DNA of 64,000 nt, from positions 15,914 through 79,913 of the forward strand of contig CAVWLW010000065.1 in assembly GCA_963755715.1 (NCBI GenBank). Reading direction: 5' to 3'. Positions 22,952 through 47,415 of the stretch are shown here, one piece after another (the first letter of the stretch is position 1; every line of letters begins with the position of its first letter). This stretch comes from an uncultured delta proteobacterium. GTDB taxonomy: Bacteria > Desulfobacterota > Binatia > UBA9968. Below the pieces are notes generated by a model that saw only the letters and a list, made by a program, of their open reading frames with translations, was not told the DNA's origin and made no database searches. Both the position numbers and the translations under genes were made by a program.

Positions 22952-24283
22952 CTAGCGTGCCGCCTGGGTTCGGCCGATTTTCTGGCAATTTTCCAATTCC
23001 CGGAGTTTTTTTGTTAGAAACGTTTGTTCCGACTCGATCGTGACCAGCTCCAGGGCTTGACGAAAATAATTGGCCGCAGCCTCGCGATTGTCCAGACGCG
23101 TTTCGAACTCACCCAGAGTCGCATAGAGCAGATAATAAGAGTTCAACTGCTCCCGTTTGTGGATCGCTTCGATCGCTTCGATGCCGGTTCGCGGACCGTG
23201 AACGGCGGCCACGGCCACGGCGCGATTGAGCGCCACCACGGGAGAATCGTCGATCTCGATCAAGCGGTCGTAGAGCGACAGGATACGCGGCCAATCCGTG
23301 GATTCGTAATCCTGCGCCGCGCAGTGGCAGGCGGTGATGGCGGCTTGAAGATGATACTCGCTGGCTTCGTCGCCGGCGGTAGATTGCATCAGGTGATAGA
23401 AGCCGCGCGCGATCAACGACTGATCCCATTGTGAGCGGTTCTGCTCCTCGAGGCGAAGAATGTTTCCTTCGGCGTCCACTCGCGCCGGCAGGCGCGCGCC
23501 GTTCAAGAGCATCAGCGCCAGGAGCGCGTGCGAACGCGGTTGATTACCCGCGGGGTGTTCGGCTACCAACGCTGTCAGCCGTATCGCTTCATGACAAAGT
23601 TCGGCCCGGATCAAATGCTCGCCGCCTGAAGCTTTGTAACCTTCGTTGAAAAGTAGGTAAAGCGTTTGCAGCACGCCGTCCAAGCGCCGGGTCAGTTCTT
23701 CCCCGCTAGGAATTTCGAAAGCAATGCGCGCGTCACGGATTTTTTGCTTCGCCCGCGTCAACCGCTTGGCGATCGCCGCTTCAGAGGTGAGAAACGCCCG
23801 CGCGATTTCTCCGGGACTGAAACCGCAAAGGGTTTTGAGCGCGAGCGCGACCTGCATCTCCTGCGGAATGAGCGAATGGCAACACGTAAACATCATGCGC
23901 AAGCGGTCGTCTTTGATTTGATTTTCGGCAGTCGTGGAGCCTTCGTCGGTGGCGTCTTCGGAGACTTGCTCCATTAAGTGGGCGATTTCGGCTTCCTTGT
24001 TGCGGAAAACTTTATCGCGCCGGATGAGATCGAGGGCCAGATTTTTTGCCACCTGGGTGATCCAAGCGGAAGGATTTCTCGGGATGCCGTAGTAGGGCCA
24101 AGTCTGTAACGCCCGCGCCAACGTTTCTTGCACCACGTCCTCGGCACGGTTCAGGTGCTCGATTCCGAAAATCCGCGTCAAGGTCGAGATTATCTTTCCC
24201 GCCTCGTGACGGAAAAAATGCTCCACCACCTGAGTAACTTCCCCAGGTGGCGCAACCGGAGCCGTGGTTTCAGAAATCGTCAT
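22952..24283 (-). CDS. ECF42-type sigma factor with TPR-like C-terminal extension (sigma 1)
   Basis: Sigma2 AEDVVQET...WP..G.P.NP.AW, DDRLRMMFTCCH, sigma4, YLLFNEGY and SPVVALNRAVA; lies downstream of a DGPF gene. Confidence 0.9.
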   Translation of the reverse strand: MTISETTAPVAPPGEVTQVVEHFFRHEAGKIISTLTRIFGIEHLNRAEDVVQETLARALQTWPYYGIPRNPSAWITQVAKNLALDLIRRDKVFRNKEAEIAHLMEQVSEDATDEGSTTAENQIKDDRLRMMFTCCHSLIPQEMQVALALKTLCGFSPGEIARAFLTSEAAIAKRLTRAKQKIRDARIAFEIPSGEELTRRLDGVLQTLYLLFNEGYKASGGEHLIRAELCHEAIRLTALVAEHPAGNQPRSHALLALMLLNGARLPARVDAEGNILRLEEQNRSQWDQSLIARGFYHLMQSTAGDEASEYHLQAAITACHCAAQDYESTDWPRILSLYDRLIEIDDSPVVALNRAVAVAAVHGPRTGIEAIEAIHKREQLNSYYLLYATLGEFETRLDNREAAANYFRQALELVTIESEQTFLTKKLRELENCQKIGRTQAAR

Positions 24284-24340
24284 TGTCGAAGATCGGTTTC
24301 GCGAACGCGTTTGTAGACGATGTTAGAATTTGTTCCTATT

Positions 24341-24520
24341 TTATTCTTGCTCGTATGCTCGCTTTAGACCTGCTATGTCGAGTTTATTCATTTGCATCAT
24401 GGCGTTCATGACTCTTGTCGATTTGCCTGGATCCTTGTCGTGTAACAAAAATAGAGGTTAAAAATTCGCCGCCTCTTCGGCTTTGCCATCGAACCACAAG
24501 AATGGGGTGATTTTCTGCAT
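24341..24520 (-). pseudogene. Internally deleted 3-dmu-9_3-mt/VOC gene
   Basis: [20 protein letters not shown] joined to [32 protein letters not shown]; these match the two ends of 40680..41153. Confidence 0.85.
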
Positions 24521-24547
24521 AACTTTTTAATCCTGCTGACCGGAAGA

Positions 24548-24955
24548 TTATGCGCTTGCCCGCGCCGGTTGCGCGTTGCTCGGGCTCAGCGCTAGCGGAC
24601 ATTCAGGAGCGACGGGTCGCACTTCCACCGACGCGCCGTAGTTCAGGCCGGGAAAGTTCTTGGCAATCTCCGTGGCTTCGTCCAAACTGCCGACTTCCAG
24701 CAAGAAAAAGCCGCCGATCGCTTCCTTGGATTCGGCAAACGGACCGTCAGCGACTGAGCGACCCTTCTTCTGGGAAACAACTTTGCCCTCTGGAAAGAGA
24801 GGTTTGCCGACTTTGGCCTTGCCCTCTGCGGTCAAGCGGTCAAGCCAGGCGTACATTTGTTTCACAACCTCCTGAATCTCTTCCGGGGAAAGGCCCTTGT
24901 GCCAATCTGTGCCACGGAATAGCAAGATGTATTCTGATTTTGCCGGTGCGCTCAT
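24548..24955 (-). CDS. YciI/DGPF family protein
   Basis: DGPFAESKEAIGGFF and VEVRP. Confidence 0.9.
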   Translation of the reverse strand: MSAPAKSEYILLFRGTDWHKGLSPEEIQEVVKQMYAWLDRLTAEGKAKVGKPLFPEGKVVSQKKGRSVADGPFAESKEAIGGFFLLEVGSLDEATEIAKNFPGLNYGASVEVRPVAPECPLALSPSNAQPARASA

Positions 24956-24999
24956 ATAGATCTCCTTATCAAGTAATGGTTTTTATTGGCCTACAACAA

Positions 25000-25029
25000 T
25001 ACGACGAACGGGCAAGCGGCTGCAGGACA
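25000..25029 (-). promoter_or_regulatory. ECF promoter class B, TGTCCT-N17-CGTCGTA
   Basis: Upstream of the yciI/VOC remnant/sigma 1 unit; the motif recurs five times with the same spacing. Confidence 0.8.
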
Positions 25030-25060
25030 CTCTATTAATTTTTTTTGGAACTTTTACCGA

Positions 25061-25636
25061 TCATTTGCCGAGCTTCATCGCTTTGGGGCGCGCCAGGAGA
25101 CGATCCACGTAAGCCTCCAGCTTGGGCCGGTCCGGCGGTTTGCCCCACATTCGCTTCCAAATAAACATAGAGCCGATCATGATGTCAGCAGCGGTGAACC
25201 AGTCGCCGAACAGGTAAGGTCCGTTGCCCAGTTCGCTTTCGATCACGTCCTTGGCCGCTTCGAACTCCGTCCAGCCGCGTTGGGGCAACGTTTGTACATT
25301 CAACAAAGCGTCGCCCATGGCGGGCTCGAGTTGCGCGGTCGAGTAGACCATCAACGAGAGGTAGCGGCCGCGTTCCGGCGCGTCGATTTTGGGCGCGAGG
25401 TTGGCTTGCGAAAACTTGTCGCCGAGATACAGGCAGATCGCCGTGCCCTCGAAGATCTTCGAGTCGCCATCGACAAGCGCAGGTAGCTTGCCAGCCGGGT
25501 TGATCTTAAGAAACTCCGGCGTCTTGTGTTCACGCTTTGTGAAGTCGATGGGAACGATCTCATATTCTGCGCCGCACTCGTCAAGCATCCACTTGGCGAT
25601 TACAGCCCGGCTCTGAGGATTGTAGTAAAGCTTCAT
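25061..25636 (-). CDS. Glutathione S-transferase family
   Basis: SRA, INPAGKLPAL and FTAADI. Confidence 0.9.
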   Translation of the reverse strand: MKLYYNPQSRAVIAKWMLDECGAEYEIVPIDFTKREHKTPEFLKINPAGKLPALVDGDSKIFEGTAICLYLGDKFSQANLAPKIDAPERGRYLSLMVYSTAQLEPAMGDALLNVQTLPQRGWTEFEAAKDVIESELGNGPYLFGDWFTAADIMIGSMFIWKRMWGKPPDRPKLEAYVDRLLARPKAMKLGK

Positions 25637-25850
25637 CGCAGCACCTCTTAATTCAAGAACAAGAGTGGGATGGAAAGAGTTCAGTCTGTGAAAGAAGCGC
25701 GCGAAAATCAACCCATCACTGAAAACTTAATCTTGCGAAAAGTCTTTCGGTGAATTGCGAGTCTCCGGTATGTGGTTTCTCGAGCAACGCCGGCTTATCG
25801 CTGTGTGTTCTGAAAGCCGGAGAAGGAGAGATGGCTGCTTCTTCGCGCGC

Positions 25851-26624
25851 TTAGTTCTTTAGCCTATACCCCGTCTTGAAAATCCAGCCCACTATCGCCA
25901 GGCAGATCACGAAAAATCCCAGCGTCATCGCCAGAGCTAACTGCCACGCTCACGTCGGACGATTCGTAGAAGCTCCAGCGGAATCCGCTGATGAGATAGA
26001 CGACCGGATTGAACAGCGCGACCGTGCGCCACCCCGGCGGCAGCATATCAATCGAATAAAAGGCGCCCCCTAAAAAGGTCAGCGGCGTCACGATCAGCAT
26101 GGGGATGAACTGCAACTGCTCGAAGCCTTTCGCCCAAATGCCGATGATGAAGCCGAACAAGCTGAAAGTCGTCGCCGTTAGCACCAGGAATGCGATCATC
26201 CAGAATGGATGCAGAATTTTGATCGGCACGAACAGTGACGCCGTGGCCAGAATGATCAGTCCCAGAGTGATCGACTTGGTCGCCGCGGCGCCGACGTAGG
26301 CGAGGACGATTTCTAGATACGACACGGGCGCGGACAAGAGTTCGTAGATCGTGCCGGTGAACTTCGGGAAATGGATGCCGAATGAGGCATTGAAAATGCT
26401 TTGGGTGAACAATGACAGCATGACCAGCCCCGGCACGATGAAGGCGCCGTAGACGACGCCATCGACCTCGGTCATGCGCGAGCCGATCGCGGCGCCGAAG
26501 ACCACGAAATAAAGCGAGGTTGTGATCACGGGCGTCACGAGACTCTGCCAGAGCGTGCGTAGGGCACGCGCCATCTCGAATTTGTAAATCGCCCAGACGC
26601 CGTACCTGTTGAATGCCAACGAGC

Positions 26625-26628
<4 letters not shown>
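25851..26628 (-). CDS. ABC-2 permease, YadH-like (frameshift near the 3' end)
   Basis: [18 protein letters not shown] and [12 protein letters not shown]; ends [10 protein letters not shown] in the shifted frame. Confidence 0.88.
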
Positions 26629-27551
<923 letters not shown>

Positions 27552-27895
27552 CGCGCGGTTTTGGCGAGATTGCAAAACGGCTCGCGCGCCGGACGCGCCT
27601 GCCGTTTGTTCGTGCCTTCCAGCACCACCCAGTGGTAACATTATAGACAACGCAATGACTCCCGACCGAAAGCTTCATCGCATCACCTCTCATAGAGAAC
27701 AGGAAATGCAATTTATATTAGTCTGTGGGAGAAACTTGCCTAAATCAACTCCAGCGCTGATCTTCGTTTGTCTTTACAGCTTCAACGCGCAGCTTTATCA
27801 TCGCTAACTGATACGCAGCATTAGAACAAAAGCCGATCCGTATCTTTAAAATATTTAACCTTGCGCTTTCTAAAAGCGAGAAAAGGAGATCCACG

Positions 27896-28660: not shown

Positions 28661-28827
28661 CGAAGTCCCTGGCAGTGGCTGAGGATATCAAGAATTTACG
28701 AAACGGCACCTTCCTTGTGTAGATTTTTTGGTTTGTTAGTAGTTTTGAGCTATGGTTGCTGGTGCTCATGGTTGTGACGCCATTTTAAGCTTAAAGTTCA
28801 ACGGCTCGTCGAAAAACGAGAAGAAAA

Positions 28828-30463
28828 ATGACAGAAAAAATACTTGTCGTGCAAGGTGGAAAACTGATCGACGGCACCGGCCGGGCGCCCGTCGAGAATT
28901 CCATCATCGTGATCCAGGCAGGCAGGTTCCAAACAGTCGGCAGGAGCGCCGAAGTCTCTATTCCCGCCGACGCTGAGGTCATTGATGCCAGGGGCAAGAC
29001 CGTCCTGCCTGGCTTCATCGATGGTCATGGCCACTTGGAGGATTTTCACGGCGAGCTTTATCTCCATTTAGGAATTACTACCTGCGCCAATATCGAACTG
29101 TACCAAGACGGCCCGTGGACGCGAGCGCAAAAACAGGGAACCGCTCTGGGAAAAATTCGCGGTCCACGGATTTGGATGTCGGGCCGGGCGATCGGCGGCG
29201 TCAGCACCGGACATGACGCTTTCGGCTCGCGGACCGCGCGCGATAACATCATCGTCACGACGCCGGAAGAAGTGCGCCGAGCAGTGCAGCGCAAAAAGGA
29301 ACTTGGCTGCGATATCCTCAAGGTCAATGAATTTCTCTCCATGGACTTGGTGAAGGTTGCTTGCGACGAAGCTCATCGGCTCGGTATGCCCGTCGCCGCG
29401 CACAGTTGGGATGTGGTCGGCTCCGCCAATGCGGGCGTTGACGCCATCGAGCATATCTGGTCGGTAGGTTACAGCTCCATTCCCTACGCTCCCGCCAGGC
29501 GCAAACTCGCCGAGGATCGACTCGGCGGCGTCATCGATCAAGAGCTCGCCGGCGCTTACTATCAGACGGAAAATTACGACGCGGTGATCGGCGCGATGGT
29601 GGAACACCAGGTCGCGTGGACTCCGACCATTGCCAAATGGCTGCGGCCGCTTTCGTCGAACGCCGAACGCTTTCAGAAAAAGAGAAAACGAGATCTTGAA
29701 CGATCCCAATGCCGATCTTCCTGCGGCGGTGCGCGCGGTCACCGACAATTCTTATGACAAGTTGTTCAAGCGCTACACGCCTGCGCAGCGCGATCAAGCC
29801 AAAGTCGGTTATGAAAAAGCCAAGGAATTTATCCGGCGCTTCGTCGAAGCAGGCGGCATTCTGAAAGAAGGCTCGGACCCGCCGCGCGGTATGGCGGCCT
29901 TGTTGATGCATCAGGCGCTGGCGATGGACGTGGAGGCCGGCGTGCCGCCGATGACCGCGATCCAAGCGGCTACGCTCAACGTCGCGAAGACTTTCAAGAA
30001 GGACAAAGACTACGGCAGCGTCGAGGTCGGCAAGGTCGCGGATCTTTCCATCGTCGAAGGTGATCCGCTGCAAGACATCTGGCTGACGCAAAACGTTAAG
30101 ATGGTCATCATGGACGGCAAGGTCATCGATAGCGGATTTACGAAATACAAGAATCCGATCGCGTCATTCTATTCCTACCAGAGCTTGCCGCTGGATCTGG
30201 AAATAGCGCCGCTGTTTCTCATCGAGGGCTCCGGTCCGACGACATTGAAGGTGCGGGGGCAGGGCGGCATGTGGCCATTCCACCATGTAATGCTGAACGG
30301 CGAGCCGCTGCCGACGAGCTTTGTCTCGAAGGACGAGCTTAAGGCGACCATTCCACCCGAGGCAATTGCAAAGGCGGGCACGTACGTCGTCACGCTCAAG
30401 TGCGAAGGGGAAGCGTTCCCCGAGTCCCATCGCGCCCATCTCGTGGTGGGGTTTAAGCCATAG
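28828..30463 (+). CDS. Amidohydrolase family protein with C-terminal Ig-like extension (frameshift near 29680)
   Basis: PGFIDGHGH, VAAH, IEH, GSD and GSVEVGKVAD; the shift sits at an A-rich run. Confidence 0.8.
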
Positions 30464-30560
30464 CATTTGTGTTGTCGGTAAATTCTATGACTCGGTGATC
30501 TCTGAAGGCTGCACTCGCCTCCTTACGCGCGAACTACGTCTTGAGCAAGGTTGCTGCTGG

Positions 30561-31778: not shown

Positions 31779-31913
31779 TACGTGCCGAGTTGTCTGAAGA
31801 CTTTCAAATTCAGTGTGACGGTAAAAGGGGCAGAAAGCAAAGACCGGCTGACTCGCGGTCTGATAAAAACGCTTTTGCGCTAAAACTCTAAAGTCCGAAT
31901 ACCCACGCCACCG

Positions 31914-32318
31914 CTACTCCACGATCTCATCATAGCCTCGCCCAAGGAACTGGACGAAGCAGAACCCGTGGCCGAAGGGATCGGCCATGAGAGCGAGCTT
32001 GCCCCACTTGTGCGTGGCGATGGGCTGCTCTAGCTGCGCTCCAGCCGATAGAGCTCTCTGAACCGCCGGTTCGATTTCATCGACCACAAAATCAAGATGG
32101 ACCGGCGTCCAATGGCGCTGGTAACTTCGACGCTGTGAGGTTGTTTCTGAAGCGAGTGTGCCAGGTATTTTGACGAGCAGGTAGATTGGCGCCGAACTTC
32201 CGAGCATCTCTACTCCAAGGGCTCCGAAGCGACGGCCGACCTTTAACCCAAACGTATCTCCGTAAAAGCGGACTGCTTTATCGAGATCGTCAACGTCCAG
32301 ATTTATCAAAAGATCCAT
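31914..32318 (-). CDS. VOC family protein
   Basis: VHLDFVV and DPFGHGFC. Confidence 0.85.
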   Translation of the reverse strand: MDLLINLDVDDLDKAVRFYGDTFGLKVGRRFGALGVEMLGSSAPIYLLVKIPGTLASETTSQRRSYQRHWTPVHLDFVVDEIEPAVQRALSAGAQLEQPIATHKWGKLALMADPFGHGFCFVQFLGRGYDEIVE

Positions 32319-32371
32319 GACATATATTCGCGTCCTCACCTAGAGTTGGCATAGAAGGCTCGTTCTTTCCC

Positions 32372-32480
32372 CGTCAGGCCGATAAAAACCGGCATCCAGA
32401 AAGGGCGTATGCCATACGCCCCTACCTAAAATCCTGGATTCCGGGTCGCGCTAGCTATCGCCAGCTTGCCCGGAATGACG
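32372..32480. repeat. Palindromic repeat family A copy with a nested REP hairpin
   Basis: CCGGCATCCAG...CTGGATTCCGG...CCGGAATGACG enclosing GGGCGTATGCCATACGCCCCTAC. Confidence 0.72.
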
Positions 32481-32560
32481 CCCGTCCAGCAAACTTCTGA
32501 AGTTCCCCATGAACCGCCGCCGGTCATCCGCGGCAACGAAGGAATCGGCGTCGCTTGATT

Positions 32561-32620
32561 TCACAACGACCGTCCGTCGAAGTGTTGGAGTGGGAACGCT
32601 TTCTAGGTCGATTCCTCGAG
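32561..32620 (-). pseudogene. 3' remnant of a second GFA gene
   Basis: IDLESVP..QHFDGRSL* matches the end of 33007..33354. Confidence 0.7.
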
Positions 32621-32980
32621 CACGGACAAGATATTGCCGGCGGGATCTTTGAACCACGCGATCAATGGTCCGCCACCGCGAAAGATTCCCTTCTCATCTG
32701 TTTTGAGCTCACCCTCATAGCGTTCGAAGCGCACACCTTTCTTTGTTAGCTGGTCCACGGCTTCCTCAATATTGCCGACCGGGAAATTGAGAATAGTGAA
32801 ACTTGCCGGAGCGTGGTTTGGCTTGGGGTAGACGAGCACCTTAGTGCCGCCCGCGAAGTGCAGGTTCAATAGCCCATGAGTTTCAGAAACCTCCAACCCG
32901 AGTGTTTTGCCGTAAAACTCCTTCGCCTTTTGGATGTCGTTTACCGAGAAACCACTAAATGCTTTAGTGTCTTTGAACAT
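32603..32980 (-). CDS. VOC family protein
   Basis: [15 protein letters not shown] and [11 protein letters not shown]. Confidence 0.9.
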
Positions 32981-33006
32981 AGCATTACCTCCGTGTGTCG
33001 CCGATT

Positions 33007-33354
33007 CTACATCGATCGTCCGTCGAAGTGTTGAACCGGAACGCTTTCCAGATCGATTCCTTCGAGGCAGCGAATATTGATTGCGGCCATCCGATTGCCT
33101 TTGGGATCGGTGCCTTCTCCGTACGGATGAATGCCGCACGTCTGACAAAATCGGTGCTTGATAACGTGCTTGTTGAACGTGTACGTGCCGATGTCTTCTT
33201 CCGCTGTGAGCGCATGCAGCTGTTCACGCGGCACAAACCACAGGAGAGATCCTTTGCGGGAACACATCGAGCAATTGCATGCCATCGCGCCACTAAGTTC
33301 GCCTTCCACCTCGAATGCAACCTTGCCGCAGTGACAGCTACCTTTATAATTCAT
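33007..33354 (-). CDS. GFA family (Zn-binding, glutathione-dependent formaldehyde-activating-like) protein
   Basis: GSCHCG, CNCSMC and FCQTCG. Confidence 0.92.
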
Positions 33355-33427
33355 GTGAGGTTCTCCTTTTGCTCTGCTAGCAGTTCGCTGATAACCGAGC
33401 AGCGCCCAAAGAAGCGCCGCTCGCCGC

Positions 33428-33829
33428 TTATTGAACCGCGCTTGGTTCCATATAGATCAGTTCCCAAATGTGACCATCCAAATCCTGAAATCCATGGCCA
33501 TACATAAAGCCGTGGTCCTGCGGCTCATTGTAGGTCGTTCCTCCGGCGGCGACTGCTTTTCGAACCATCTCATCGACCTTTGCTCGGCTTTCCATGGATA
33601 AGCACACCAGCACTTCAGTGGCTTTCTTTGCGTCGCAAATTTCCTTTGGAGTAAAGGTCTTGAACTTCGCTTCAGTTAACAGCATGACGAAAATATCGTC
33701 AGTCACGATCATGCACGTGGCCGTCTCATCGGTAAATTGCTGATTAAAAGTGTAGCCAAGCTTGGTGAAAAACTCGATTGACTTGTTGAGATTTTTCACT
33801 GGCAGATTCACGAAAATTTTTGTCGCCAT
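33428..33829 (-). CDS. VOC family protein
   Basis: IFVNLPV and FQDLDGHIWE. Confidence 0.9.
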   Translation of the reverse strand: MATKIFVNLPVKNLNKSIEFFTKLGYTFNQQFTDETATCMIVTDDIFVMLLTEAKFKTFTPKEICDAKKATEVLVCLSMESRAKVDEMVRKAVAAGGTTYNEPQDHGFMYGHGFQDLDGHIWELIYMEPSAVQ

Positions 33830-33866
33830 GTTTTCTCCTTGTGTAGATTCATTACACTACGAACTA

Positions 33867-34043
33867 TCAGCGGAACGGCCGCATAATGCCGCCGTTGATG
33901 CCGCTCGGGCCGCCGGTTTCGACCCGGTGGTAATTCATTTCGGCAATGTGCCGAATCTTGCAGTCGAAGGTCTTTCCGTAGAACTCCGACAGTTTCGCCG
34001 GCTCCTTCGATAATAGCTGCCAGTGAACAACCGGTTTGCCCAT
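33867..34043 (-). pseudogene. Truncated VOC gene, N-terminal half only (58 aa)
   Basis: MGKPVVHWQLLSKEPAKLSEFYGKTF...GGPSGINGGIM then stop; AGGAGA RBS. Confidence 0.7.
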
Positions 34044-34110: not shown

Positions 34111-34140
34111 TACGACGAATGAGCGCGTGGCTCCGGGACA
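34111..34140 (-). promoter_or_regulatory. ECF promoter class B, TGTCCC-N17-CGTCGTA
   Basis: Upstream of the VOC/VOC/GFA/VOC run. Confidence 0.8.
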
Positions 34141-35723: not shown

Positions 35724-36465
35724 TTATTTTACGCCGTACTTGTCGTGGTGACGGACCCACATGTCGCCCTGTTGGTTGAGATCTTCGGTGCCGCTCCAAC
35801 CCTCCTGTCGGCCAAGCGGCGTCAGATCGAGATAGTTATAGGTGCCGATGAGCAGATCGCCGCCGCGCGCATAAGTCGAGTAGGTGTGAAAGACGTCGTC
35901 GCCCTCGCGCACGAAAAACGCTCAAGCCCGGCAGCTCGCCCTTCGTGAACCAGGGCATGCCGGCTTTCTCGTGCGCCGCCTTGTCCCGGTAGTTGTATTC
36001 GACGGGCGCGACGTTCTCGTCCAGGGTGACATGGAAATCGTAATTGAAGTCGCTGCCGAACGAGGAGTACCAGGGGAAGCTCCAACCCATCTGCTTTTTA
36101 AACGGCTGGATTTTGGCGAGCGTCGCGCGCGAAACGACAGCCAACGAGGTGTCGCGCGCGTGCAGATGGGCGAGGTGGCCGATGTTGTCGACCAGAAACG
36201 AGCACATCGGACAGCCCTCGTCCCAGCTGGGGTCGAACATGAAGTGGTAGACGATGAGCTGGCGTCGTCCGCCGAACAAATCGAGCAAGCGCAGTTTCCC
36301 GGCCGGGCCCTCGAAGACATACTCTTTGTCGATCTTGACTCTCGGCAACTTACGGCGCTCAGCGTTCAGCGCGTCGCGCTGGCGGGTGAATTCCTTTTCT
36401 TTGGCAAGCAGCTCCTTGCGGGCGACAAGCCACGCATCTCGCGAGACGACTTTCGGATAATCCAT
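35724..36465 (-). CDS. DUF899 thioredoxin-like protein (frameshift near 35915)
   Basis: YHFMF...GCPMCSF, SDFNYDF, then HTYSTYARG and [10 protein letters not shown] in the shifted frame. Confidence 0.88.
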
Positions 36466-36609: not shown

Positions 36610-36639
36610 TACGACGGATGAGCAAAACATTTCAGGACA
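36610..36639 (-). promoter_or_regulatory. ECF promoter class B, TGTCCT-N17-CGTCGTA
   Basis: Upstream of DUF899. Confidence 0.8.
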
Positions 36640-37386: not shown

Positions 37387-37416
37387 TACGATGAACGAAG
37401 CCCGAAGAAATCGACA
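37387..37416 (-). promoter_or_regulatory. ECF promoter, hybrid TGTCGA-N17-CATCGTA
   Basis: Upstream of the PhnB-like gene; class A -35 with a class B-like -10. Confidence 0.65.
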
Positions 37417-37865: not shown

Positions 37866-38099
37866 GATCGGTCTCCTTCGTTGTGATTCGCAGCTGTTAT
37901 TGCTCTACACTGCGGAATACTTACTGTTATCGATTCTTCTCCGTTACGTGCTTGTAATAAAGTTCAACGATCTGTGAATTATGAGTTTTATCTTTGATCA
38001 ATCTTAGTTTAATGCCGTGACGCGAGTCTTTAAACACGGCGAACATGAAAATTTATTTTCAGCGGGTAACCGCAACACCGATGACGATTTGTGCGAAAA

Positions 38100-38549: not shown

Positions 38550-38678
38550 GGCGTCTCCTTTCAGCTTTTCGTCCTAGGGTTACCAGATCTTTTTGACACT
38601 TTCGGATGGATCCTCAGTGGAATTTATTTGTGTTGTAGTCATAGCTTTCTGGTTGGCGATCTTCTTCCGGTCCAATTC

Positions 38679-38708
38679 TACGACGAGCGAAATGAGCTCT
38701 TCAGGACA
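38679..38708 (-). promoter_or_regulatory. ECF promoter class B, TGTCCT-N17-CGTCGTA
   Basis: Upstream of the DoxX gene at 38549. Confidence 0.8.
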
Positions 38709-38733
38709 TCTCATGTTTCGTCTTCGTGCGCGC

Positions 38734-39093
38734 TCAGGCGTCGACCAGGACCTTGAATCCGCCCCAGAACATGCGCTTGCCATCGAACGGCATCGACTTT
38801 GGATCCATCATCTTTGCCAGGCGCGGGTCCTTCATGACCTTCGCGTTGACACGGTCGCGATGCGCACGCGACTTGAACACAATCCACGAGAACACCACCG
38901 TCTCGCCGGGCTTGAGCTTGACGCTCTGCGGGAACGACGTGCGCTTGCCCGGCTTCACGTCGTCGGCGACGCACTCGGTGAACTCGAGAGCGCCGTGATC
39001 GCGCCAAACTTTTCCAGCCTTCTGGGCCATGCGACGATAGGCCTGCAGCTTCTTTTTCGGCACCGGCAAAACGTAACCATCGACGTAGCGCAT
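38734..39093 (-). CDS. DUF1428 (YbaA-like) protein
   Basis: YVDGYVLPVP, ETVVFSW and MPFDGKRMFWGGF. Confidence 0.9.
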   Translation of the reverse strand: MRYVDGYVLPVPKKKLQAYRRMAQKAGKVWRDHGALEFTECVADDVKPGKRTSFPQSVKLKPGETVVFSWIVFKSRAHRDRVNAKVMKDPRLAKMMDPKSMPFDGKRMFWGGFKVLVDA

Positions 39094-39157
39094 AAAAATC
39101 TCCCTTGGTTTGCTGAAAAAATATAGAAACAGATCACTATCGCGATGCGACGAATCT

Positions 39158-39454
39158 CTAGCCGCCGGCGATTGCCCCCACGATCATAAAGGGCTCGGCG
39201 CCACTCGCGACAGCCTGGGGCAGCGGCGCGTCCGGCGCTTCGTGGGAGAGATCTTCCCCGCACGCGAAAAATCGCACGAATGCTCGGCGTTTTTTCGTGG
39301 TGTGGTCGCGGATCGTGCCGCGCAACATCGGATAACGAGCCTCGAGCGCGTCGAGCACCGAACGCTGCGTGACCTCACCCTCGACGTCGAGCTTCACCTC
39401 GCCGTCGACTTGCGCGAGCTTGCGCAGATGTGCTGGGAGCGTGACACGGATCAT
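39158..39454 (-). CDS. MoaD/ThiS ubiquitin-like protein
   Basis: 98 aa ending AIAGG; overlaps the stop of the upstream gene (ATGA). Confidence 0.88.
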
Positions 39455-40638
39455 GGCAGCGTCTGGACCTCGACGGACACCACGGCCGGAAGATCGCGGA
39501 CAATGGGCGCCCAGTTGTCGCCCGCGTCGGCGGATGCATACACCTGCCCGCCGGTCGTGCCGAAGTACACGCCGCACTTATCGAGCGAGTCGACGGCCAT
39601 GGCGTCGCGCAGCACGTTGACATAGCAGTCGCTCTGCGGCAGGCCTTTGGTGAGCGCTTCCCACTCGTTGCCGCCAGATCGGCTGCGGTACACGCGGAGC
39701 TTGCCGTCGGGCGGAAAATGTTCCGAGTCGCTCTTGATCGGCACGACGTAGATGGTCTCCGGCTCATGCGCATGAACGTCGATCGCGAAGCCGAAGTCGG
39801 TCGGCAGATTGCCGCTGATCTCATGCCACGACTCGCCGGCATCGTCGCTGCGCATGACGTCCCAGTGCTTCTGCATGAACAGCACGTCCGGGCGCGAGCG
39901 ATGCATCGCGATGCGATGAACGCAGTGGCCGATCTCCGCGGTCGGATCAGGGATATAGAGTGAATGCAGGCCGCGGTTGATCGGCTGCCAAGTCTTGCCG
40001 CCGTCATCGGTGCGAAACGTGCCAGCCGAAGAGATGGCGACGAACATTCGTTCCTGGTTACTTGGATCGAGAAGGATGGTGTGCAGGCACATTCCTCCGG
40101 CGCCCGGCGCCACATTGTCACCTGAACCGTGGCCTCGCAGGCCGGCGAGCTCGCGCCACGATTTGCCACCGTCGGTGGAGCGGAACAGGGCAGCGTCTTC
40201 GACGCCGGCGTAAACCGTGTCGGGATCAGTCAGCGACGGTTCGAGATGCCAGACGCGCTTGAACTCCCACGGATGCGCCGTGCCGTCGTACCATTGGTGC
40301 GTGGTGAGCGGCTTGCCCGTTTCGGCGGATGTATCGTAAACAAACTTGTTGCTCTCGCCCTTGGGCGTGCCGTCCGGGGCGGTGGTCGGTTCGCCTGGCG
40401 GCGTTCCCGGTTGGTGCCATGTCTTTCCGCCATCATCTGAGCGTTGAATGATCTGCCCAAACCAGCTGCTGGACTGCGACGCATACAACCGGTTCGGATC
40501 CGCTGGAGATCCCTTGAGGTGATACATCTCCCAGCCGGCAAAGTGGGGGCTGCTGACCTCCCATTTTTCACGCTTTCCGTCCGACGTGAGAATAAATGCG
40601 CCTTTGCGCGTGCCTACCAATACTCGTACTCCGCTCAT
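39451..40638 (-). CDS. BNR/Asp-box beta-propeller (sialidase-like), no signal peptide
   Basis: Repeated SxDGGxTW Asp boxes. Confidence 0.88.
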
Positions 40639-40679
40639 GTCTTTCTCCTTATTGATTGAGTTTCGCGCGCCGCGTTATT

Positions 40680-41153
40680 TTATTGTTGCTCGTTTGCTCT
40701 CTTCAGACTTGCGATGTCGAGCTTGTCCATTTGCAGCATGGCGTTCATAACTCGCTTCGATTTCTCGGCATCCTTGTCTTGCAGCAATTGACCCAGGACG
40801 GTCGGCACAATTTGCCACGACACGCCGAATTTATCTTTAAGCCAACCGCATCTCTGCTTTTCCCCGCCCTCGGAGAGCTTTTCCCAGAATTTATCGACCT
40901 CTTCCTGCGTCTCGCAATGCACGAAGAACGATATGGCCGGCGAGAAGGTGAACATGGGACCGCCGTTCAATGCGATGAACTCTTGTCCCTGGAGTTCGAA
41001 GGTCGCGGACATGACCGATCCTTTCGGTCCGGGTCCTGCCTCGCCAGAGCGCATCATGCTCACAATCTTTGAGTTTGGAAAGATGGAAGTGTAGAAGTTC
41101 GCGGCCTCTTCGGCTTTGCCATCGAACCACAAAAACGGTGTGATTTTTTGCAT
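40680..41153 (-). CDS. VOC protein (3-dmu-9_3-mt family)
   Basis: [14 protein letters not shown] and [14 protein letters not shown]. Confidence 0.92.
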
Positions 41154-41176
41154 ATCGTTTTATTCCTATGCTGATT

Positions 41177-41587
41177 TCAAGGCGCAACCGTAACCATCCA
41201 GCCGACGCCGAAGCGATCTGCAACCATGCCGAAGCAGGGCGACCAGAAGGTTTTGCCGAGCGGCATTTGCACCTGCCCGCCTTCGGCCAGCGCGGCGAAC
41301 TTTCGTTTCGCGTCGGCTTCATCAGCCGCCGTGAGCGATAATGAAAATCCCTGAAAATTTGTCCCTTCGCTGCAACCGTCGGAGGCCATCACATTAGCGT
41401 TGCCGATGCGCAAGGTCGCGTGCATGATCTTGTTCTCCCAGCCCGGCGGCACCATCCCCGGCGGCGTGGGTTCCGGACTTTCTTTGTAACGCATCAGCAT
41501 CAAAACCTCGGCGCCAAGCGCCTTTTTGTAAAACTCGATCGCCTCTTCGCAGCGGCCGTTAAAAAATAGATAGGGTTCGATAGCCAT
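41177..41587 (-). CDS. PhnB/YjdN-like VOC protein
   Basis: PYLFFNGRCEEA, MASD and DRFGVGWMV. Confidence 0.9.
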   Translation of the reverse strand: MAIEPYLFFNGRCEEAIEFYKKALGAEVLMLMRYKESPEPTPPGMVPPGWENKIMHATLRIGNANVMASDGCSEGTNFQGFSLSLTAADEADAKRKFAALAEGGQVQMPLGKTFWSPCFGMVADRFGVGWMVTVAP

Positions 41588-41674
41588 AATCGCATCTCCT
41601 TTTTGTGGGTTGGTATTTCTTGATCGTTCTAATGGGTTTTTTAAACAGGCACGACGCCGAGCGACATCGCTCGC

Positions 41675-42055
41675 TCACGGATTCTCGGCGGCATTGACCT
41701 TTGCGGTAGATTCCTCGTCGAGGGCGCGGATCTCGAAAGTCGCCACGCGAATCCCCGGATGTTTCGACATCAATTCGGTTGCGTGATTTAGATCGATGGC
41801 ATCGAGCAAGAGAACACCGCCGATTTGTTCCTTGGTTTCAGCGTATGGGCCGTCGGTGATGGATACCTTGCCATTCCGGTAGCGCAAAGTTCTCGCGTTT
41901 TGCGCATTTTGCAGCGCCTCCAGGCGAACGAAATGACCATTCCTTTTAAGGACGTTGTCGTAAGCGAAACATTCCTTGATGAAGGTCTCACGCTCGCTAT
42001 CAGACATGACGTCGAACTTTTGTTCATCTATGTGTGACAGACAAAGAAGCTTCAT
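41675..42055 (-). CDS. YciI/DGPF family protein
   Basis: [13 protein letters not shown] and FEIR. Confidence 0.88.
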   Translation of the reverse strand: MKLLCLSHIDEQKFDVMSDSERETFIKECFAYDNVLKRNGHFVRLEALQNAQNARTLRYRNGKVSITDGPYAETKEQIGGVLLLDAIDLNHATELMSKHPGIRVATFEIRALDEESTAKVNAAENP

Positions 42056-42091
42056 AATCTTTTCCTTGCGGCATTTACCTACCGATATCCA

Positions 42092-42120
42092 GTAGTCGTT
42101 CAGCCGCCACGGAATCGACA
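42092..42120 (-). promoter_or_regulatory. ECF42 promoter class A, TGTCGA-N16-CGACTAC
   Basis: Upstream of the DGPF gene at 42055; the spacer is one base shorter than in the other copies. Confidence 0.72.
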
Positions 42121-42165
42121 TCCTAAACTAAAAATATTCGACCCAACGGCAGCTTTTACGGTAAT

Positions 42166-42522
42166 TCAGCACTCCAACTCGGCAATGCAACGCACTTCGA
42201 CCGTGCCCCCCGCCGGAAGCGTCGGGATGCGCGCCGCGATCGACATCGCCTCGTTCAGATCCATGCAATCGATAAGGTGGTAGCCGCCGAGTTGCTCTTT
42301 GGTCTCGGCGAAGGGCCCATCGGTAAGTACTGTCCTGCCGTTCTTCATGCGCACTGTCTTCGCTGACGGCGCCGGGTGGAGTTTTGCTCCGCCGCGGAAG
42401 TGGCCAGTGTCGACGAGATTCTGTACCCAATCTCCATAGTCCTGCATAATCTTGTCCTTCTGCGCGCCGGGTAAGTTGTTCCAGGCAGTCTCGTCGAAAC
42501 AGCACATCAGCATATATTGCAT
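42166..42522 (-). CDS. YciI/DGPF family protein
   Basis: [14 protein letters not shown] and VEVR. Confidence 0.9.
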   Translation of the reverse strand: MQYMLMCCFDETAWNNLPGAQKDKIMQDYGDWVQNLVDTGHFRGGAKLHPAPSAKTVRMKNGRTVLTDGPFAETKEQLGGYHLIDCMDLNEAMSIAARIPTLPAGGTVEVRCIAELEC

Positions 42523-42631
42523 AGTGATCTCTCCATTCTGAAACTCGGCAGTAGCAGAGCGGCATAAAGCTGCTTCTGCACAAACCCCAGATGATTTAGC
42601 TTACCGAGTGGCGAAACTTCCCGACATGGGT

Positions 42632-43510
42632 TCACGCTTCGAGCGGAATCCAAATCTCCATTCCGCCCATACCGGTTTTGGGATTGAACTCTTCGGTGTA
42701 GCGCTCGAAGCACGGGGCGCTCGCCACTTTGAGCCCCGCTTGGGGCACCCACTCGTTCCATATTTTGTCGATAGTATTGCCGATGGCAGAGACATTGTCC
42801 GGGTGCGTGAAGACCGCATATTCGCGGGCGGGGAGTCGTACGGTCGCGAACTCAGCCGGGAGTCCCTTGGCGTCCTTCACTTCGACACCCGAGAGATACT
42901 CGAATCCACGCCCCGGCGATACGTTCCAACAAACGCCGTAGGAAACTTGACCCATCTGTCCGGGGACCTTGCCGATTTTCGGGGCAAACCGTTCCCATTG
43001 TGCGGGAATCTTGGCCCGGGTTTCGAACGTGTAGCTCTCGTTCAAACCGGCGACAACGATCTCCTTGGCATGCTCAAAGCGGGGTGCTCCGAGCCCCAGC
43101 GCCTGGGCGCGAATGCTGGCTTCTTGCCTGCGCAGTTCCGGCGTAAACTCGGCGCCGAAATCTTCCGCCTCGAAAAGTGGGCGAATCTCGACCTCGCCAT
43201 CCTCGTTGTACGGATTGGGGCAGCGCTTGACCCACTCGATCGCCTCTTCTTTGGACTTGCACTGCCATAGCCAGTAGCCGGCGATCAGTTCTTTGGTCTC
43301 GGCGAAGGGCCCGTCGATCACGGTGCGCTGGCCGCCGGAAAACCTGACACGCGCGGCTTTGGAGGTCGGATGCAGTCCCTCCCCAGCAAGCATCACGCCG
43401 GCTTTCACCAGCTCTTCATTGAATTGGCCCATCTCGGTGAGGAGTCGCTCGCTCGGCATCACGCCTGCTTCCGAGTCCTTAGTGGCCTTGACCAAGATCA
43501 TGAATCGCAT
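42632..43510 (-). CDS. YciI/DGPF domain fused to a GyrI-like effector-binding domain
   Basis: N-terminal DGPFAETKELIAGYW; C-terminal IPAQWERF, YAVFTH, FERYTEEF and EIWIP. Confidence 0.88.
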   Translation of the reverse strand: MRFMILVKATKDSEAGVMPSERLLTEMGQFNEELVKAGVMLAGEGLHPTSKAARVRFSGGQRTVIDGPFAETKELIAGYWLWQCKSKEEAIEWVKRCPNPYNEDGEVEIRPLFEAEDFGAEFTPELRRQEASIRAQALGLGAPRFEHAKEIVVAGLNESYTFETRAKIPAQWERFAPKIGKVPGQMGQVSYGVCWNVSPGRGFEYLSGVEVKDAKGLPAEFATVRLPAREYAVFTHPDNVSAIGNTIDKIWNEWVPQAGLKVASAPCFERYTEEFNPKTGMGGMEIWIPLEA

Positions 43511-43580
43511 CGTCGTATCTCCTTCTGTCTTTTTGATCGGCCGCGCCGTGGCTCTGGGGTTAAATCACTGCTGATATTCC

Positions 43581-43610
43581 TTAGTCGATCGGCTCGGCGC
43601 AAAATCGACA
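43581..43610 (-). promoter_or_regulatory. ECF42 promoter class A, TGTCGA-N17-CGACTAA
   Basis: Upstream of the DGPF-GyrI gene. Confidence 0.8.
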
Positions 43611-43615
43611 GCCGT

Positions 43616-44002
43616 TCACTCTGCGCCGGGCGTGTTAAGTCCGAGCGCGAGCGTCTGCGCATCCTCCGCGATCGGCCGCACCTCGACGCAGCCGAAGCGC
43701 GCGCCCGGGATCTTGGCGGCTACCCGGATCGCCTCGTTCAGATCCCTGGCCTCGATGACGTAATAGCCGCCGAACTGCTCCTTGGTCTCGGCGAAAGGTC
43801 CGTCGGTTGTCGACACCTTGCCGTCGCGCACGCGGACAGTGATCGCCGTATCGGCGGGGGTCAGCCGATTGGCGCCGATAAAGTGACCGTTTCTTTTGAT
43901 GTCGGCCGTGAACTCAGCGTACTCCTGGAAGTGCTGCTCCGCATCGGCCGGCGCCATTTGCTCCATCACGGTCTCGGCGCAGATCAGGCAAATGAATTTC
44001 AT
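43616..44002 (-). CDS. YciI/DGPF family protein
   Basis: DGPFAETKEQFGGY and VEVRP. Confidence 0.9.
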   Translation of the reverse strand: MKFICLICAETVMEQMAPADAEQHFQEYAEFTADIKRNGHFIGANRLTPADTAITVRVRDGKVSTTDGPFAETKEQFGGYYVIEARDLNEAIRVAAKIPGARFGCVEVRPIAEDAQTLALGLNTPGAE

Positions 44003-44156
44003 CTCGTCTCCTTTTTTTGTCGAACGGCGTCAATCAACCAACGACCCACAGCCCACGTCGCCGGCATTTCGTCGTGGCCCGAGGACTTAGGGATGTTCAG
44101 GCGCGCTGGGAGCATCAGGATGGTCACGTTGATCTGCGAGAACCGGGTTTCTCACA

Positions 44157-44549
44157 TCATTCGCCCTTTGAACGGCGCCGCTCACTCTCGTGGATCATTT
44201 CGGTCAAGTCCTCAGCCGGCCGAATCTCGAAGGGTCCTGCCTTCACACCTGGATGCTTCGACATCAACTGGATGGCGTGGTTAAGGTCTTTGGCCTCGAG
44301 CACGAGGATCCCGCCCAACTGTTCTTTCGTCTCGGCATACGGGCCATCGGTGATGGACACCTTGCCGTTCTTCCATCGCAGCGTGGTAGCGTTCCCAGCG
44401 CCTTGGAGCGCTTCTCCACCAACAAAGTGACCTTTTTTTCGCAGCACGTCGTCGTAGGCGAAGCACTCATCGACCATGGCGTTCCGCTCGGTTTCGGACA
44501 TCGTTTCCCACTTCTTCTCTTCCATGTATCCAAGGCATACGTATTTCAT
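44157..44549 (-). CDS. YciI/DGPF family protein
   Basis: [13 protein letters not shown] and FEIRP. Confidence 0.9.
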
Positions 44550-44588
44550 AATTTCCTCCTGATCGTATTTGATTGGTCGTTTCACCCT

Positions 44589-44618
44589 GTAGTCGTTCAG
44601 GCGAGCCCAGAATCGACA
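44589..44618 (-). promoter_or_regulatory. ECF42 promoter class A, TGTCGA-N17-CGACTAC
   Basis: Between sigma 2 and the first DGPF gene. Confidence 0.8.
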
Positions 44619-44649
44619 ACGGGACTTTAGAAAAACTGCTTTCGCGGTC

Positions 44650-45924
44650 TCAGCCCGGCAGTTCGGCTAGACGCCGCTTCAGAAACCGCCGCTCCGGCTC
44701 CTGCTCCGTGAGGCTCAGCGCTCGTTCGTAGGAGGCTCGGGCTTCCGCGATTCGCCCCAACCGCCGGCAGAGATCCGCCCGCGCTGCATGGGCGAGGTGG
44801 TAGCCGGAAAGATCACCGCGTTCCAGGATCGCGTCGATCAGCGCAACTCCCTCAGACGGACCGTCGCGCATCGCCACCGCCACCGCCCGGTTCAGCTCGA
44901 CCACGGGCGACGGCTCCGCCAGCGCTAGCAGGTCATAAAGCGCGACGATCTGGGTCCAGTCCGTGGCGGCGGCGTTGGCCGCATTAGCGTGCACGGCTGC
45001 GATCGCTCCTTGGACGGTGTATGGGCCAACCTGGTTTGCCGCCAGCGCCCGTTCCACCAGCGCTGAGCCCTCCGCGATCTGATCCCGGTTCCAAAGCGAG
45101 CGGTCCTGGTCGTTAAGCAGGATCAACTCCCCGCTCGACGATGTGCGCGCGGCGCGGCGCGAGTCGTGCAGCAGCATCAGCGCGAGCAGTCCCAGCGCTT
45201 CCGGCTCCGGCAGCAACTCCACAAGCAGCCGACCGAGGCTGATCGCCTCGCTTGAAAGATCGTGCCGCGTGAGTGCCGCACCGGATGACGCGGAATATCC
45301 CTCGTTGAACACGAGGTAGACGACCCGAAGCACGGCATCGAGTCGGTCCGGCAGCTCGGTCGCCGAGGGTACCTCGTAGGGAATGCGCGCGTTACGAATC
45401 TTTGCTTTGGCGCGGACGATGCGCTGCGCCACCGTGGCCGGCGATGAAAGAAACGCGCGCGCAACCTCCTCCGTTGTCAGGCCGCAGACTTCGCGCAGCG
45501 TCATCGCCACTTGAGCGTCCGGCGACAGGGCTGGATGGCAGCAGGTGAAGATGAGGCGCAGCCGATCGTCTTTGATGCTTTCGTCGTTCCACGCCTCGGG
45601 ATCATCGGTGTCCGCCACGAGTCGCTTGTCGATATCGTCCGGCAACGGCGTGAATCGGCTGCGCCGGCGAATTGCGTCGATCGCCTTGAAACGGCCGGTC
45701 GACACGAGCCAGGCGCGTGGATTGGCGGGGACACCATCGCGCGGCCATTGCTCCAAAGCCGCCCTGAAAGCGTCGTGCAATGCCTCTTCGGCGATATCGA
45801 AGTCGCCGAGTAGGCGGATTAACGTGGCGAGGACGTGGCGCGAATCGGAGCGGTAGACGGCGTCCACCGTGTTGCGCGCGTGTTCAGGCGCGATGCCTAA
45901 GCCGGTTTGTGGGTCGCGATCCAT
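44650..45924 (-). CDS. ECF42-type sigma factor with TPR-like C-terminal extension (sigma 2)
   Basis: AEEALHDAF...[32 protein letters not shown] and [11 protein letters not shown]; adjacent to five DGPF genes. Confidence 0.92.
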
Positions 45925-46177
45925 AACATGTTGCCTCTCATTTAAGGTTAGCGTGGGGTAGCGACTCAGAGCGGAGAATCGCTTTGGCATTTTCCGCCCA
46001 TCCGATCGCACTCTAAACTCTGCCAATTTTCTCGCAATCGGTGCCAAAATCAATGAGGGAAAGTAAATTGGCGGCGAGGCGAGTCCCATGAAACGATAGA
46101 GGTCTTATCGAAGACAAACCAAACGGATTCGCAGCGCAACGATTTGAACGGCTGGAACGAATTAAACGACTGTTGTT

Positions 46178-46449
46178 TCAGCGCGCAACCAGCAACGTGG
46201 GATCTGCGCAGTGACCCGCCGATCCTCGGGTTCGGCGGCGCTTTCGAACACGACTACCGATTTCCGCGCTCGGTGAGTAGATATTTATGAAAGTTAAAGC
46301 GCGGCGGCTTCCAGTCGTCGCCGCGAGTCAGGAAAGAGCCGGTTTGCGTTTCGCTGACGACCGAGGTCTTCGCAAACACGGAAACATGGTTGCCCTAGTA
46401 ACCGGCAGAATCGCGCGATCTCCTGGTTCGATCCCGGCTCCTGGCCGCC
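46178..46449 (-). pseudogene. Degraded glutathione peroxidase remnant (C-terminal part)
   Basis: GGQEPGSNQEIARFC, VFAKTSVV and PRFNFHKYL in shifting frames; N-terminus absent. Confidence 0.75.
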
Positions 46450-46451
46450 GA

Positions 46452-47081
46452 TCACGGCTTGATGGCGGCGAAAGCTTCGGCGATGCGCGTCGGCGCATTT
46501 GGGCGGGCGTACATCCGCTTCATGTAGGTGAGCAGCTGCGGGCAATCGTCGAGCAACTGGTCCTCGTTGGCCCAGTCGAGCGTGTATGCCATCACAAAAT
46601 CGGCGACCGTCACATTGTCGCCCACGATGAACTGCCGCCGTTGCATGTGCTCCTCTAACACAGATGCCATGGCCTTGAACTCCTGGCTGGCGGGGACCAC
46701 GTCCGCCGGCAAGCGCTGCTCTTCCGGATACAGCATCGTGTTGCGAGCGATGCGCCAGAGCGGCTGCTCCAACTCCGTCGCCGCGAACAGAAGCCAGCGG
46801 TTGACCTGCGCCCGCTCCTTAAGGTCGGTGGGGATCAGGCCTTTGTTGGAATACTTGTCGGCCAAGTAGAGCACGATGGCCACAGACTCGGTCAACACGA
46901 GGTCGCCGTCGACGAGCACTGGAATTTTGCCTGCGGGATTGATCTTGAGAAACTCGGGGCGCTGGTGCTCGCCGGCTAAGAGGTTGACGCGAATGGGTTC
47001 GAAATCCACGCCCAGCTCCTGGAGTGTCCAGCGCACGCGGATCGATCGGGTAGGGCCAAACTCGTATAGTTTCATCTTCAT
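46452..47081 (-). CDS. Glutathione S-transferase family
   Basis: TRS, INPAGKIPVL, ESVAI and TVADF. Confidence 0.92.
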   Translation of the reverse strand: MKMKLYEFGPTRSIRVRWTLQELGVDFEPIRVNLLAGEHQRPEFLKINPAGKIPVLVDGDLVLTESVAIVLYLADKYSNKGLIPTDLKERAQVNRWLLFAATELEQPLWRIARNTMLYPEEQRLPADVVPASQEFKAMASVLEEHMQRRQFIVGDNVTVADFVMAYTLDWANEDQLLDDCPQLLTYMKRMYARPNAPTRIAEAFAAIKP

Positions 47082-47149
47082 CGATACCTCCTTCTTCGGC
47101 CGCGCTTTGCGGCCGATCGCGATGTTTGAACCTAAGTTCTCGGCGAGCG

Positions 47150-47349
47150 CTACGGCTTCAAGTCGATCGCGGCTTTGAAGCTGCCGTCCATGTAGAAGGG
47201 GACCGAGCTACGCTCATGTGTGATCGTCCACTTCCCGTCGATTTTACGGAAGCCGAGGGTCTCGCGAAACCACAAGTCCACGTTCTGTCCGTCTAGTCGT
47301 TGTTGCCATCAGCCACGTCATCTTCGATGGGTTTACTGGTTGCCGTCAT
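47150..47349 (-). pseudogene. Internally deleted YybH/SnoaL-like (NTF2) gene
   Basis: RBS plus MTATSKPIED start, then DLWFRETLGFRKIDGKWTITHERSSVPFYMDGSFKAAIDLKP*. Confidence 0.75.
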
Positions 47350-47385
47350 TTTTTCTCCTCTCTAGCTTTTGTCTCGTTTCATTAA

Positions 47386-47415
47386 TACGACGAACGAGAA
47401 AATACCCTCGGGACA
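47386..47415 (-). promoter_or_regulatory. ECF promoter class B, TGTCCC-N17-CGTCGTA
   Basis: At the upstream end of the island. Confidence 0.8.

Follow-up and report, generated by a model that had tools for sequence, protein, structure and literature searches.

The window analysed here comprises 64,000 nucleotides of contig CAVWLW010000065.1 from the assembly of an uncultured delta proteobacterium (GCA_963755715.1; Desulfobacterota, Binatia, UBA9968). Between positions 22,952 and 47,415 it carries two genes for ECF42-type sigma factors (extracytoplasmic function, ECF), termed sigma 1 and sigma 2, together with nine promoter-like intergenic motifs and genes of the YCII/DGPF, VOC, GFA, DUF899, DoxX and glutathione S-transferase (GST) families (Table 1). 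In both proteins the Sigma70_r2 and r4_2 domains lie about 40 amino acids (aa) apart with no region 3, TIGR02937 exceeds its cut-off and a C-terminal extension of about 240–260 aa contains DUF6596, in agreement with an initial sequence-only reading that had taken both for ECF42 sigmas. The extension of sigma 1 is all-helical in a predicted structure (mean pLDDT 76), with a consensus tetratricopeptide repeat (TPR) protein as best fold match (E 8.5e-4); a Pfam TPR_2 match in sigma 2 is below cut-off. The two are the only DUF6596 sigmas of the genome, are 40% identical to each other and are both akin to S. meliloti RpoE10 (BLAST E 2e-72 and 2e-102; shared tree). A YCII/DGPF gene occupies the -1 position of sigma 1, whilst sigma 2 instead precedes five YCII genes; no anti-sigma gene is found beside either, the neighbours being CorA, YCII and GST. 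At the positions equivalent to RpoE residues 56, 80, 84, 171 and 172, in the numbering of Todor et al., sigma 1 exhibits Arg57, Asn81, Asp85, Ala172 and Lys173 and sigma 2 exhibits Ala56, Phe80, Asp84, Ala167 and Gln168. Sigma 1 of this genus nests in a mostly Verrucomicrobiota clade (support 97–99; unrooted tree), a placement that hints at transfer.

Table 1. Sigma factor genes, candidate promoter motifs and neighbouring genes (window coordinates).
Feature	Position	Strand	Remarks
Sigma 1, ECF42-type, 443 aa	22952..24283	minus	Sigma r2, r4_2, DUF6596, TPR-like C-terminal part
Lys173 codon of sigma 1	23765..23767	minus	RpoE-Ser172 position; proposed TGTCC determinant
Sigma 2, ECF42-type, about 424 aa	44650..45927	minus	No class A site upstream
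Gln168 codon of sigma 2	45424..45426	minus	RpoE-Ser172 position
Class B motif	25000-25029	minus	44 bp ahead of yciI-sigma 1; autoregulatory position; kept in relatives
Class B motif	34111-34140	minus	Followed by 58-codon ORF, then VOC, GFA, VOC, VOC genes (31914-33829)
Class B motif	36610-36639	minus	Ahead of DUF899
Class B motif	38679-38708	minus	Ahead of two DoxX genes
Class B motif	47386-47415	minus	Ahead of SnoaL remnant and GST
Class A motif	42092-42120	minus	Ahead of YCII gene; spacer 1 nt shorter
Class A motif	43581-43610	minus	Ahead of YCII-GyrI gene
Class A motif	44589-44618	minus	Directly behind sigma 2, ahead of YCII gene; position kept in relatives
Imperfect "hybrid" site TGTCGAT-N16-CATCGTA	37387-37416	minus	Ahead of PhnB-like VOC gene
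YCII/DGPF gene, first of sigma 1 operon	24548..24955	minus	
Five YCII/DGPF genes, one fused to GyrI-like domain	41675..44549	minus	
PhnB-like, 3-dmu-9_3-mt, BNR-repeat, MoaD-like and DUF1428 genes	38734..41587	minus	Co-oriented behind class A promoters, gaps -4 to 87 bp
Broken SnoaL/NTF2-like gene, then GST gene	46452..47349	minus	

The sequence-only reading had proposed nine minus-strand motifs, each 35–145 bp upstream of a start codon, and all nine were found; the distance stands at 36–144 bp for eight of them, whereas the motif at 34111 lies 68 bp from a 58-codon open reading frame (ORF), with the intact VOC gene 281 bp away. Five sites make up class B, TGTCCYG-N16-CGTCGTA, and three make up class A, TGTCGAT-N15/16-CGACTA. 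A loose B pattern matches the window five times, where shuffled sequence averages 1.04 matches and only 1 of 100 shuffles had as many, and a loose A pattern 11 times, three of these being the sites in Table 1, against 2.4 in shuffles (0 of 100). With class matrices trained on the sites of related genomes alone (24 B, 31 A), the five B sites of the window score 32–37 on the B matrix and below -11 on the A matrix, and two of the A sites score 34 on the A matrix and below -9 on the B matrix, the 42120 site with its shorter spacer being unscored. In this genus the classes also diverge immediately before the -10 box, with TCGTT at B sites and CCGAA at A sites, and the bases at -9 to -7 vary among sigma clades, which suggests further specificity positions. 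The ninth motif had been regarded as a hybrid promoter: its -10 box does not have the G of the CG kept by nearly all family promoters, and among three orthologues of the gene behind it two exhibit a class B-like TGTCCAT..CGTCGTC and one has no site. On these grounds, including the mismatch at -12, a dual-input promoter was rejected, and the site is probably degenerate.

Across the 7.4-Mb genome the strict B pattern occurs seven times, with five occurrences inside the 24.5-kb stretch of Table 1 (0.33% of the genome) and none for the reversed-pattern control; the strict A pattern likewise occurs seven times, three of them in this stretch, against one for its control. Matrix ranking of the whole genome separates the seven B sites (30.8–38.4) from the next best score of 17.0 and three A sites (33.8–34.5) from a next best of 20.0. 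Three further sites are held by other contigs (C41, C36 and C53): a B site on C41 precedes an SRPBCC-like gene, and an A site on C36 precedes a YCII gene and two DUF899-like genes, all named by sequence resemblance. On C53 (12477-12506, minus) the best-scoring B site of the genome is followed by no evident gene; opposite it is a 356-aa cupin-like ORF. The remaining three strict A matches look like chance. An ECF41-type TGTCAC pattern was set aside as a candidate: its 39 loose matches in the genome all lie on other contigs, and the three that were inspected were uninformative.

Comparison with 60 genomes of relatives revealed that the motif class tracks the sigma type: strict B sites are present in 6/6 relatives with a sigma 1 orthologue vs 2/15 with sigma 2 but no sigma 1 (G017 and G021, each of about 710 contigs). 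No test statistic is given for this comparison, since kin are not independent. Outside the family, one B match was found in 1 of 24 genomes. In G031, a relative with a partial sigma 1, yciI is preceded by a TGTCCTA variant; in G005, which has a 61-residue sigma 1 fragment, a TGTCAT variant lies nearby. Five genomes with sigma 1 and no sigma 2 contain 0–1 strict A matches, at unchecked positions, and similar strings occur also in ECF42-free genomes. The B motif lies ahead of yciI-sigma 1 in four loci (L015, L017, L019, L069) and in variant form in two more (L074, L079). The same GFA, VOC, DoxX and DUF1428 targets are headed by A sites in genomes that have sigma 2 alone (L059-L063) and by B sites in G012 (L066, L067), in which sigma 1 was the only one of the two detected. 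About 60–110 bp upstream of sigma 2, six loci (L059, L060, L062, L071, L020, L021) share a conserved TAAACA-N17-TACAAT-like sequence that to the eye resembles a promoter of sigma-70 type; it is present where sigma 2 is divergent from a dehydrogenase-like gene.

The same association was analysed over 296 distinct ECF42 sigmas with flanking DNA. Promoters were called upstream of adjacent YCII genes by TGTC and CG.C only, blind to the bases that separate the classes, and sites were found in 142 of 246 yciI-upstream regions vs 4.8 in shuffles. The calls cover 141 sigmas, 126 with the same spacing, in a sample enriched for Lys-type sigmas; the other 155, without an adjacent YCII region or a perfect site, were excluded, and one locus of the 296 (G093), not among the calls, supports no claim. 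The variable position was located by alignment with the serine of the ECF "TVRSR" helix (mycobacterial SigE, SigL). Lysine or arginine at the RpoE-Ser172 position goes with TGTCC/T in 66 of 67 cases (Lys: 60 C, 5 T, 1 G; Arg: 1 C) and glutamine with TGTCG in 68 of 69 (68 G, 1 T), whilst alanine sigmas show 4 G and 1 A. This rule was seen in the first 97 calls, after which metagenome loci were fetched by a Lys-only helix pattern (80 listed of at least 120): among the matches listed, 33 of 67 metagenome sigmas were called, with 31 C, 1 T and 1 G, i.e. C/T in 32 of 33. An unselected phylum sample gave 12/12 calls with Gln and G. Position 172 ranks first of 386 columns for the fifth -35 base (corrected mutual information 0.63, next 0.26); residues 175 and 171 were rejected as its determinants (ranks 300 and 157). 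The following base, as a register control, ranks residue 171 first, as in Todor Table S1, and we therefore place the first T at -36, the variable base at -32 and the following base at -31. Trees built without the contact columns show 8 changes of residue 172 when made from 141 rows with FastTree, and 6 when made from 62 hand-picked rows with IQ-TREE in quick mode. Q172 members adjoining the sigma 1 clade retain TGTCG. Of 11 pairs of co-resident paralogues (9 genomes; a small sample), 10 are of unlike class, vs a fraction of 0.70 for random pairs.

At the -10 box, a basic residue 56 goes with T at -11 in 52/52 cases and Phe80 with A in 18/18, followed by His80 with A (8/10) and Asn80 with T (17/19). 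The -11 difference thus accompanies separate residues of sigma domain 2, apart from the -35 residue. The sequence-only reading had the -35 and -10 changes co-varying, which holds for this sigma pair only: among the 141 promoters TGTCC+CGTC occurs 57 times, TGTCG+CGAC 38, TGTCG+CGTC 34 and TGTCC+CGAC 4. Because all four -32/-11 combinations exist, the two boxes form separate modules; the CGAC of class A is common to 44 of the 141.

From the motifs, their placement and the residue–base covariation we infer both promoter activity and sigma assignment, and we hold with considerable confidence that each motif class is an ECF42 promoter read preferentially by one resident sigma. The assignment of B to sigma 1 and A to sigma 2, as first suggested, is favoured by the comparative evidence: B ahead of yciI-sigma 1, and a class that tracks sigma type. 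Sigma 1 (Arg57, Asn81, Lys173) would read TGTCC..CGTC and sigma 2 (Ala56, Phe80, Gln168) would read TGTCG..CGAC. In domain 4, Lys at the RpoE-Ser172 position would select C (or T) at -32 and Gln would select G; in domain 2, the CGTC box (T at -11) would pair with Arg56/Asn80 and the CGAC box (A) with Ala56/Phe80, with Asp84 kept in both sigmas for the CG. Residue 172 is probably causal for the -32 base through direct contact, and the lysine could contact the template-strand G opposite the -32 C. Sigma 1 would drive its own yciI-sigma operon, the VOC/GFA, DUF899, DoxX and GST units and the SRPBCC gene on another contig; sigma 2 would drive the YCII array, the genes that follow it and the YCII/DUF899 unit on another contig. 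Sigma 1 would thereby be autoregulated and sigma 2, whose upstream region has no A site and is conserved with relatives, would not be in this genome. The functions of the targets (glyoxalase-like, GST, GFA, DoxX, SRPBCC) suggest the handling of small reactive or hydrophobic compounds. For the family we lean slightly towards a combinatorial code, in which residue 172 sets G/C at -32, the domain 2 pocket sets T/A at -11 and a repeated Gln/Lys switch insulates paralogues as separate non-cross-reacting regulons. Strict orthogonality of the two regulons in this genome is about an even bet.

Several observations weigh against this interpretation. The -35 rule has two exceptions, one K172 sigma with a G site and one Q172 sigma with a T site; only 141/296 sigmas were called, and one-mismatch sites of the uncalled sigmas are less clean (K: 26/31 C/T; Q: 19/21 G). 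Independent origins are few, with four pairs on well-supported branches, all concordant, giving a sign test p of 0.125 (no significance). At -11, Arg80 sigmas are mixed (16 A, 25 T) and the rule is weak phylogenetically, with about 2.6 of 9 pairs concordant, none opposite and the rest unchanged. Among the relatives, one B match occurs in 4 of 13 family members without a clear ECF42 (G010, G018, G028, G035); together with G017 and G021 this makes six family members, mostly fragmented or incomplete assemblies, with strict B and no sigma 1 found. The published ECF code ties -32 to residues 171/175 and not to 172 (PMC7776599), and contigs from the runs examined (4/17) gave no molecule ends or usable expression evidence.

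The gene order bears on how far the regulons are separate. Behind sigma 2 come the five YCII genes, accompanied by the three A sites, and after them the PhnB-like to DUF1428 genes; since the class A promoters thus head a long co-oriented run reaching class B genes, orthogonal regulons are doubtful at the transcript level. Between 46000 and 36800 the minus strand yielded no terminator-like site, in a terminator scan that overall stayed at shuffle level, and A-headed transcripts may consequently extend into B genes; the scan for sigma-70 promoters and terminators was no better than shuffles (7 vs 8.6 and 17 vs 22.5). A cascade, in which sigma 1 also activates sigma 2 by read-through from the 47415 B promoter across GST, is an unlikely addition, albeit the least unlikely of those considered: sigma 2 has no A site of its own, and both here and in L075 it follows a B site in the same orientation, yet the intervening 524-bp gap contains a hairpin (about -16 kcal/mol), relatives differ in the gene that precedes sigma 2, and most of 16 upstream regions, read by eye, have no B site and share a different conserved sequence that is sigma-70-like. 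A conserved sigma 1 to sigma 2 cascade was rejected, as it is not kept among these 16 regions.

A slightly less probable account, which we doubt, sees the two classes as lineage signatures carried along with sigma and cassettes, both sigmas reading both classes within one merged regulon. The shared TGTC and CG.C, the same target gene families, the imperfect mixed site and the A-headed run into B genes fit such a regulon, but without selectivity the repeated independent coupling of residue 172 and base would be difficult to account for, ECF activity in the systems tested drops strongly when single bases are changed (bioRxiv 2020.06.23.168245), and sites hold their class within one cluster. That class B is read by some other sigma or regulator is very improbable: the genome is 93.6% complete, so that a gene may be missing, and in PMC7826278 ECF41-type promoters resemble TGTC..CGTC and ECF250 is predicted with TGTCCCTTT at -35 (but with a different -10), whereas sigma 1 is alone among the genome's 18 sigma-r2 matches in having a motif of this kind within 900 bp upstream, none of the other sigmas has a helix like that of sigma 1, and B lies ahead of the sigma 1 operon in Verrucomicrobiota, Acidobacteriota, Bacteroidota and Myxococcota records.

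The stretch had been called a detox island. Its GC content (0.52–0.62) is ordinary compared with the flanks (0.49–0.60), unrelated genes occupy 25.9–31.8 kb, the three further sites lie on other contigs, and no mobility families occur among 43 ORFs scanned, the borders not having been searched for repeats; given the unrelated genes inside and the ordinary GC, we speak of a cluster and not of a demonstrated island. In the gap between GST and sigma 2, positions 46170-46455 (minus) are 74–77% identical to the end of the glutathione peroxidase gene that precedes sigma 2 in L028, L016 and L063, as if the B-promoter/SnoaL/GST unit had replaced that gene and left its 3' end. Short or broken genes include the 58-codon ORF (33864-34043), DUF899 with an aberrant C-terminus (35836-36465) and the SnoaL remnant (47150-47349); an amidohydrolase lies in two frames at 28828-30463, and contigs of three runs are one base short at 29670. 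At 39158-40638 the BNR-repeat beta-propeller gene overlaps the MoaD/ubiquitin-like gene, a pair that recurs in ECF42 clusters across phyla (L059-L064, L083, L094, L097, L149). An intergenic segment at ~32430-32480 is matched by contigs of many other organisms that diverge on both sides and is possibly a small repeat or RNA element.

ECF42 is among the largest ECF groups, with 10,294 sequences (PMC7826278), and a single promoter motif is described for it. As this motif misses 67 of our 141 called promoters (in a Lys-enriched sample), regulon predictions for those sigmas would fail. The single-residue rule would make the promoter readable from the protein, adding a contact to the ECF specificity code; if the combinatorial code is true, it involves a residue–base contact absent from the published one. 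The rule also hints at the way in which paralogues escape cross-talk and yields a naturally occurring pair of sigma–promoter parts, whilst the nine promoters and two sigmas could serve as reporters in seeking the ECF42-activating signal.

Several ECF42 paralogues per genome are reportedly also found in Streptomyces venezuelae (Sven_0747/4377/7131), where Liu et al. in 2018 are said to have described the adjacent YCII genes as the only targets, and the Streptomyces ECF42 consensus has CG(A/T)C. Streptomyces venezuelae and Pseudomonas putida (ECF-10) are, by report, like the present genome in having several ECF42 paralogues and YCII/DGPF targets. The consensus ECF42 promoter is TGTCGAT (-35) and CGTC (-10) in PMC7826278 (Casas-Pastor et al. 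2021), where the supplement, as far as accessible, describes the motifs as common to the whole group with TGTCC unmentioned. Our system is alike in its TPR-extended ECF, adjacent YCII gene and TGTC + CG.C boxes; class A has the consensus -35, and is the known -35 with a common -10 variant, whereas class B has the consensus -10 but not the -35. The sequence-only reading knew of no described TGTCC class, and none for ECF42 came up in the literature searched, including the accessible PMC7826278 and PMC7776599 supplements, although subgroup logos and Todor Datasets S1-S2 may hold it. For S. meliloti RpoE10 (37% identical to sigma 1, 45% to sigma 2), the promoters mapped are TGTCGG..CGTC, placed before hydrophobic-ligand-binding and glyoxalase-like genes, and the regulon is small and local; in the text available the strain has one ECF42 listed, one promoter class and no TGTCC (PMC6180224), and its locus fits the rule, with Q172 for TGTCG and R56/N80 for CGTC. 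From the code of Todor et al. 2020, the pairings of Asp84 with -13C/-12G, of basic 56 with -11T and of 171 with -31 also hold here (bioRxiv 2020.06.23.168245; PMC7776599), and its Lys56 rule at -11 agrees with our basic-56/T pairing (bioRxiv 2020.06.23.168245). The difference lies at -32: the published code assigns Ser172 to -34/-33 and 171/175 to -32 (PMC7776599), whereas within ECF42 the -32 base follows residue 172 (rank 1/386) and not 175 (rank 300).

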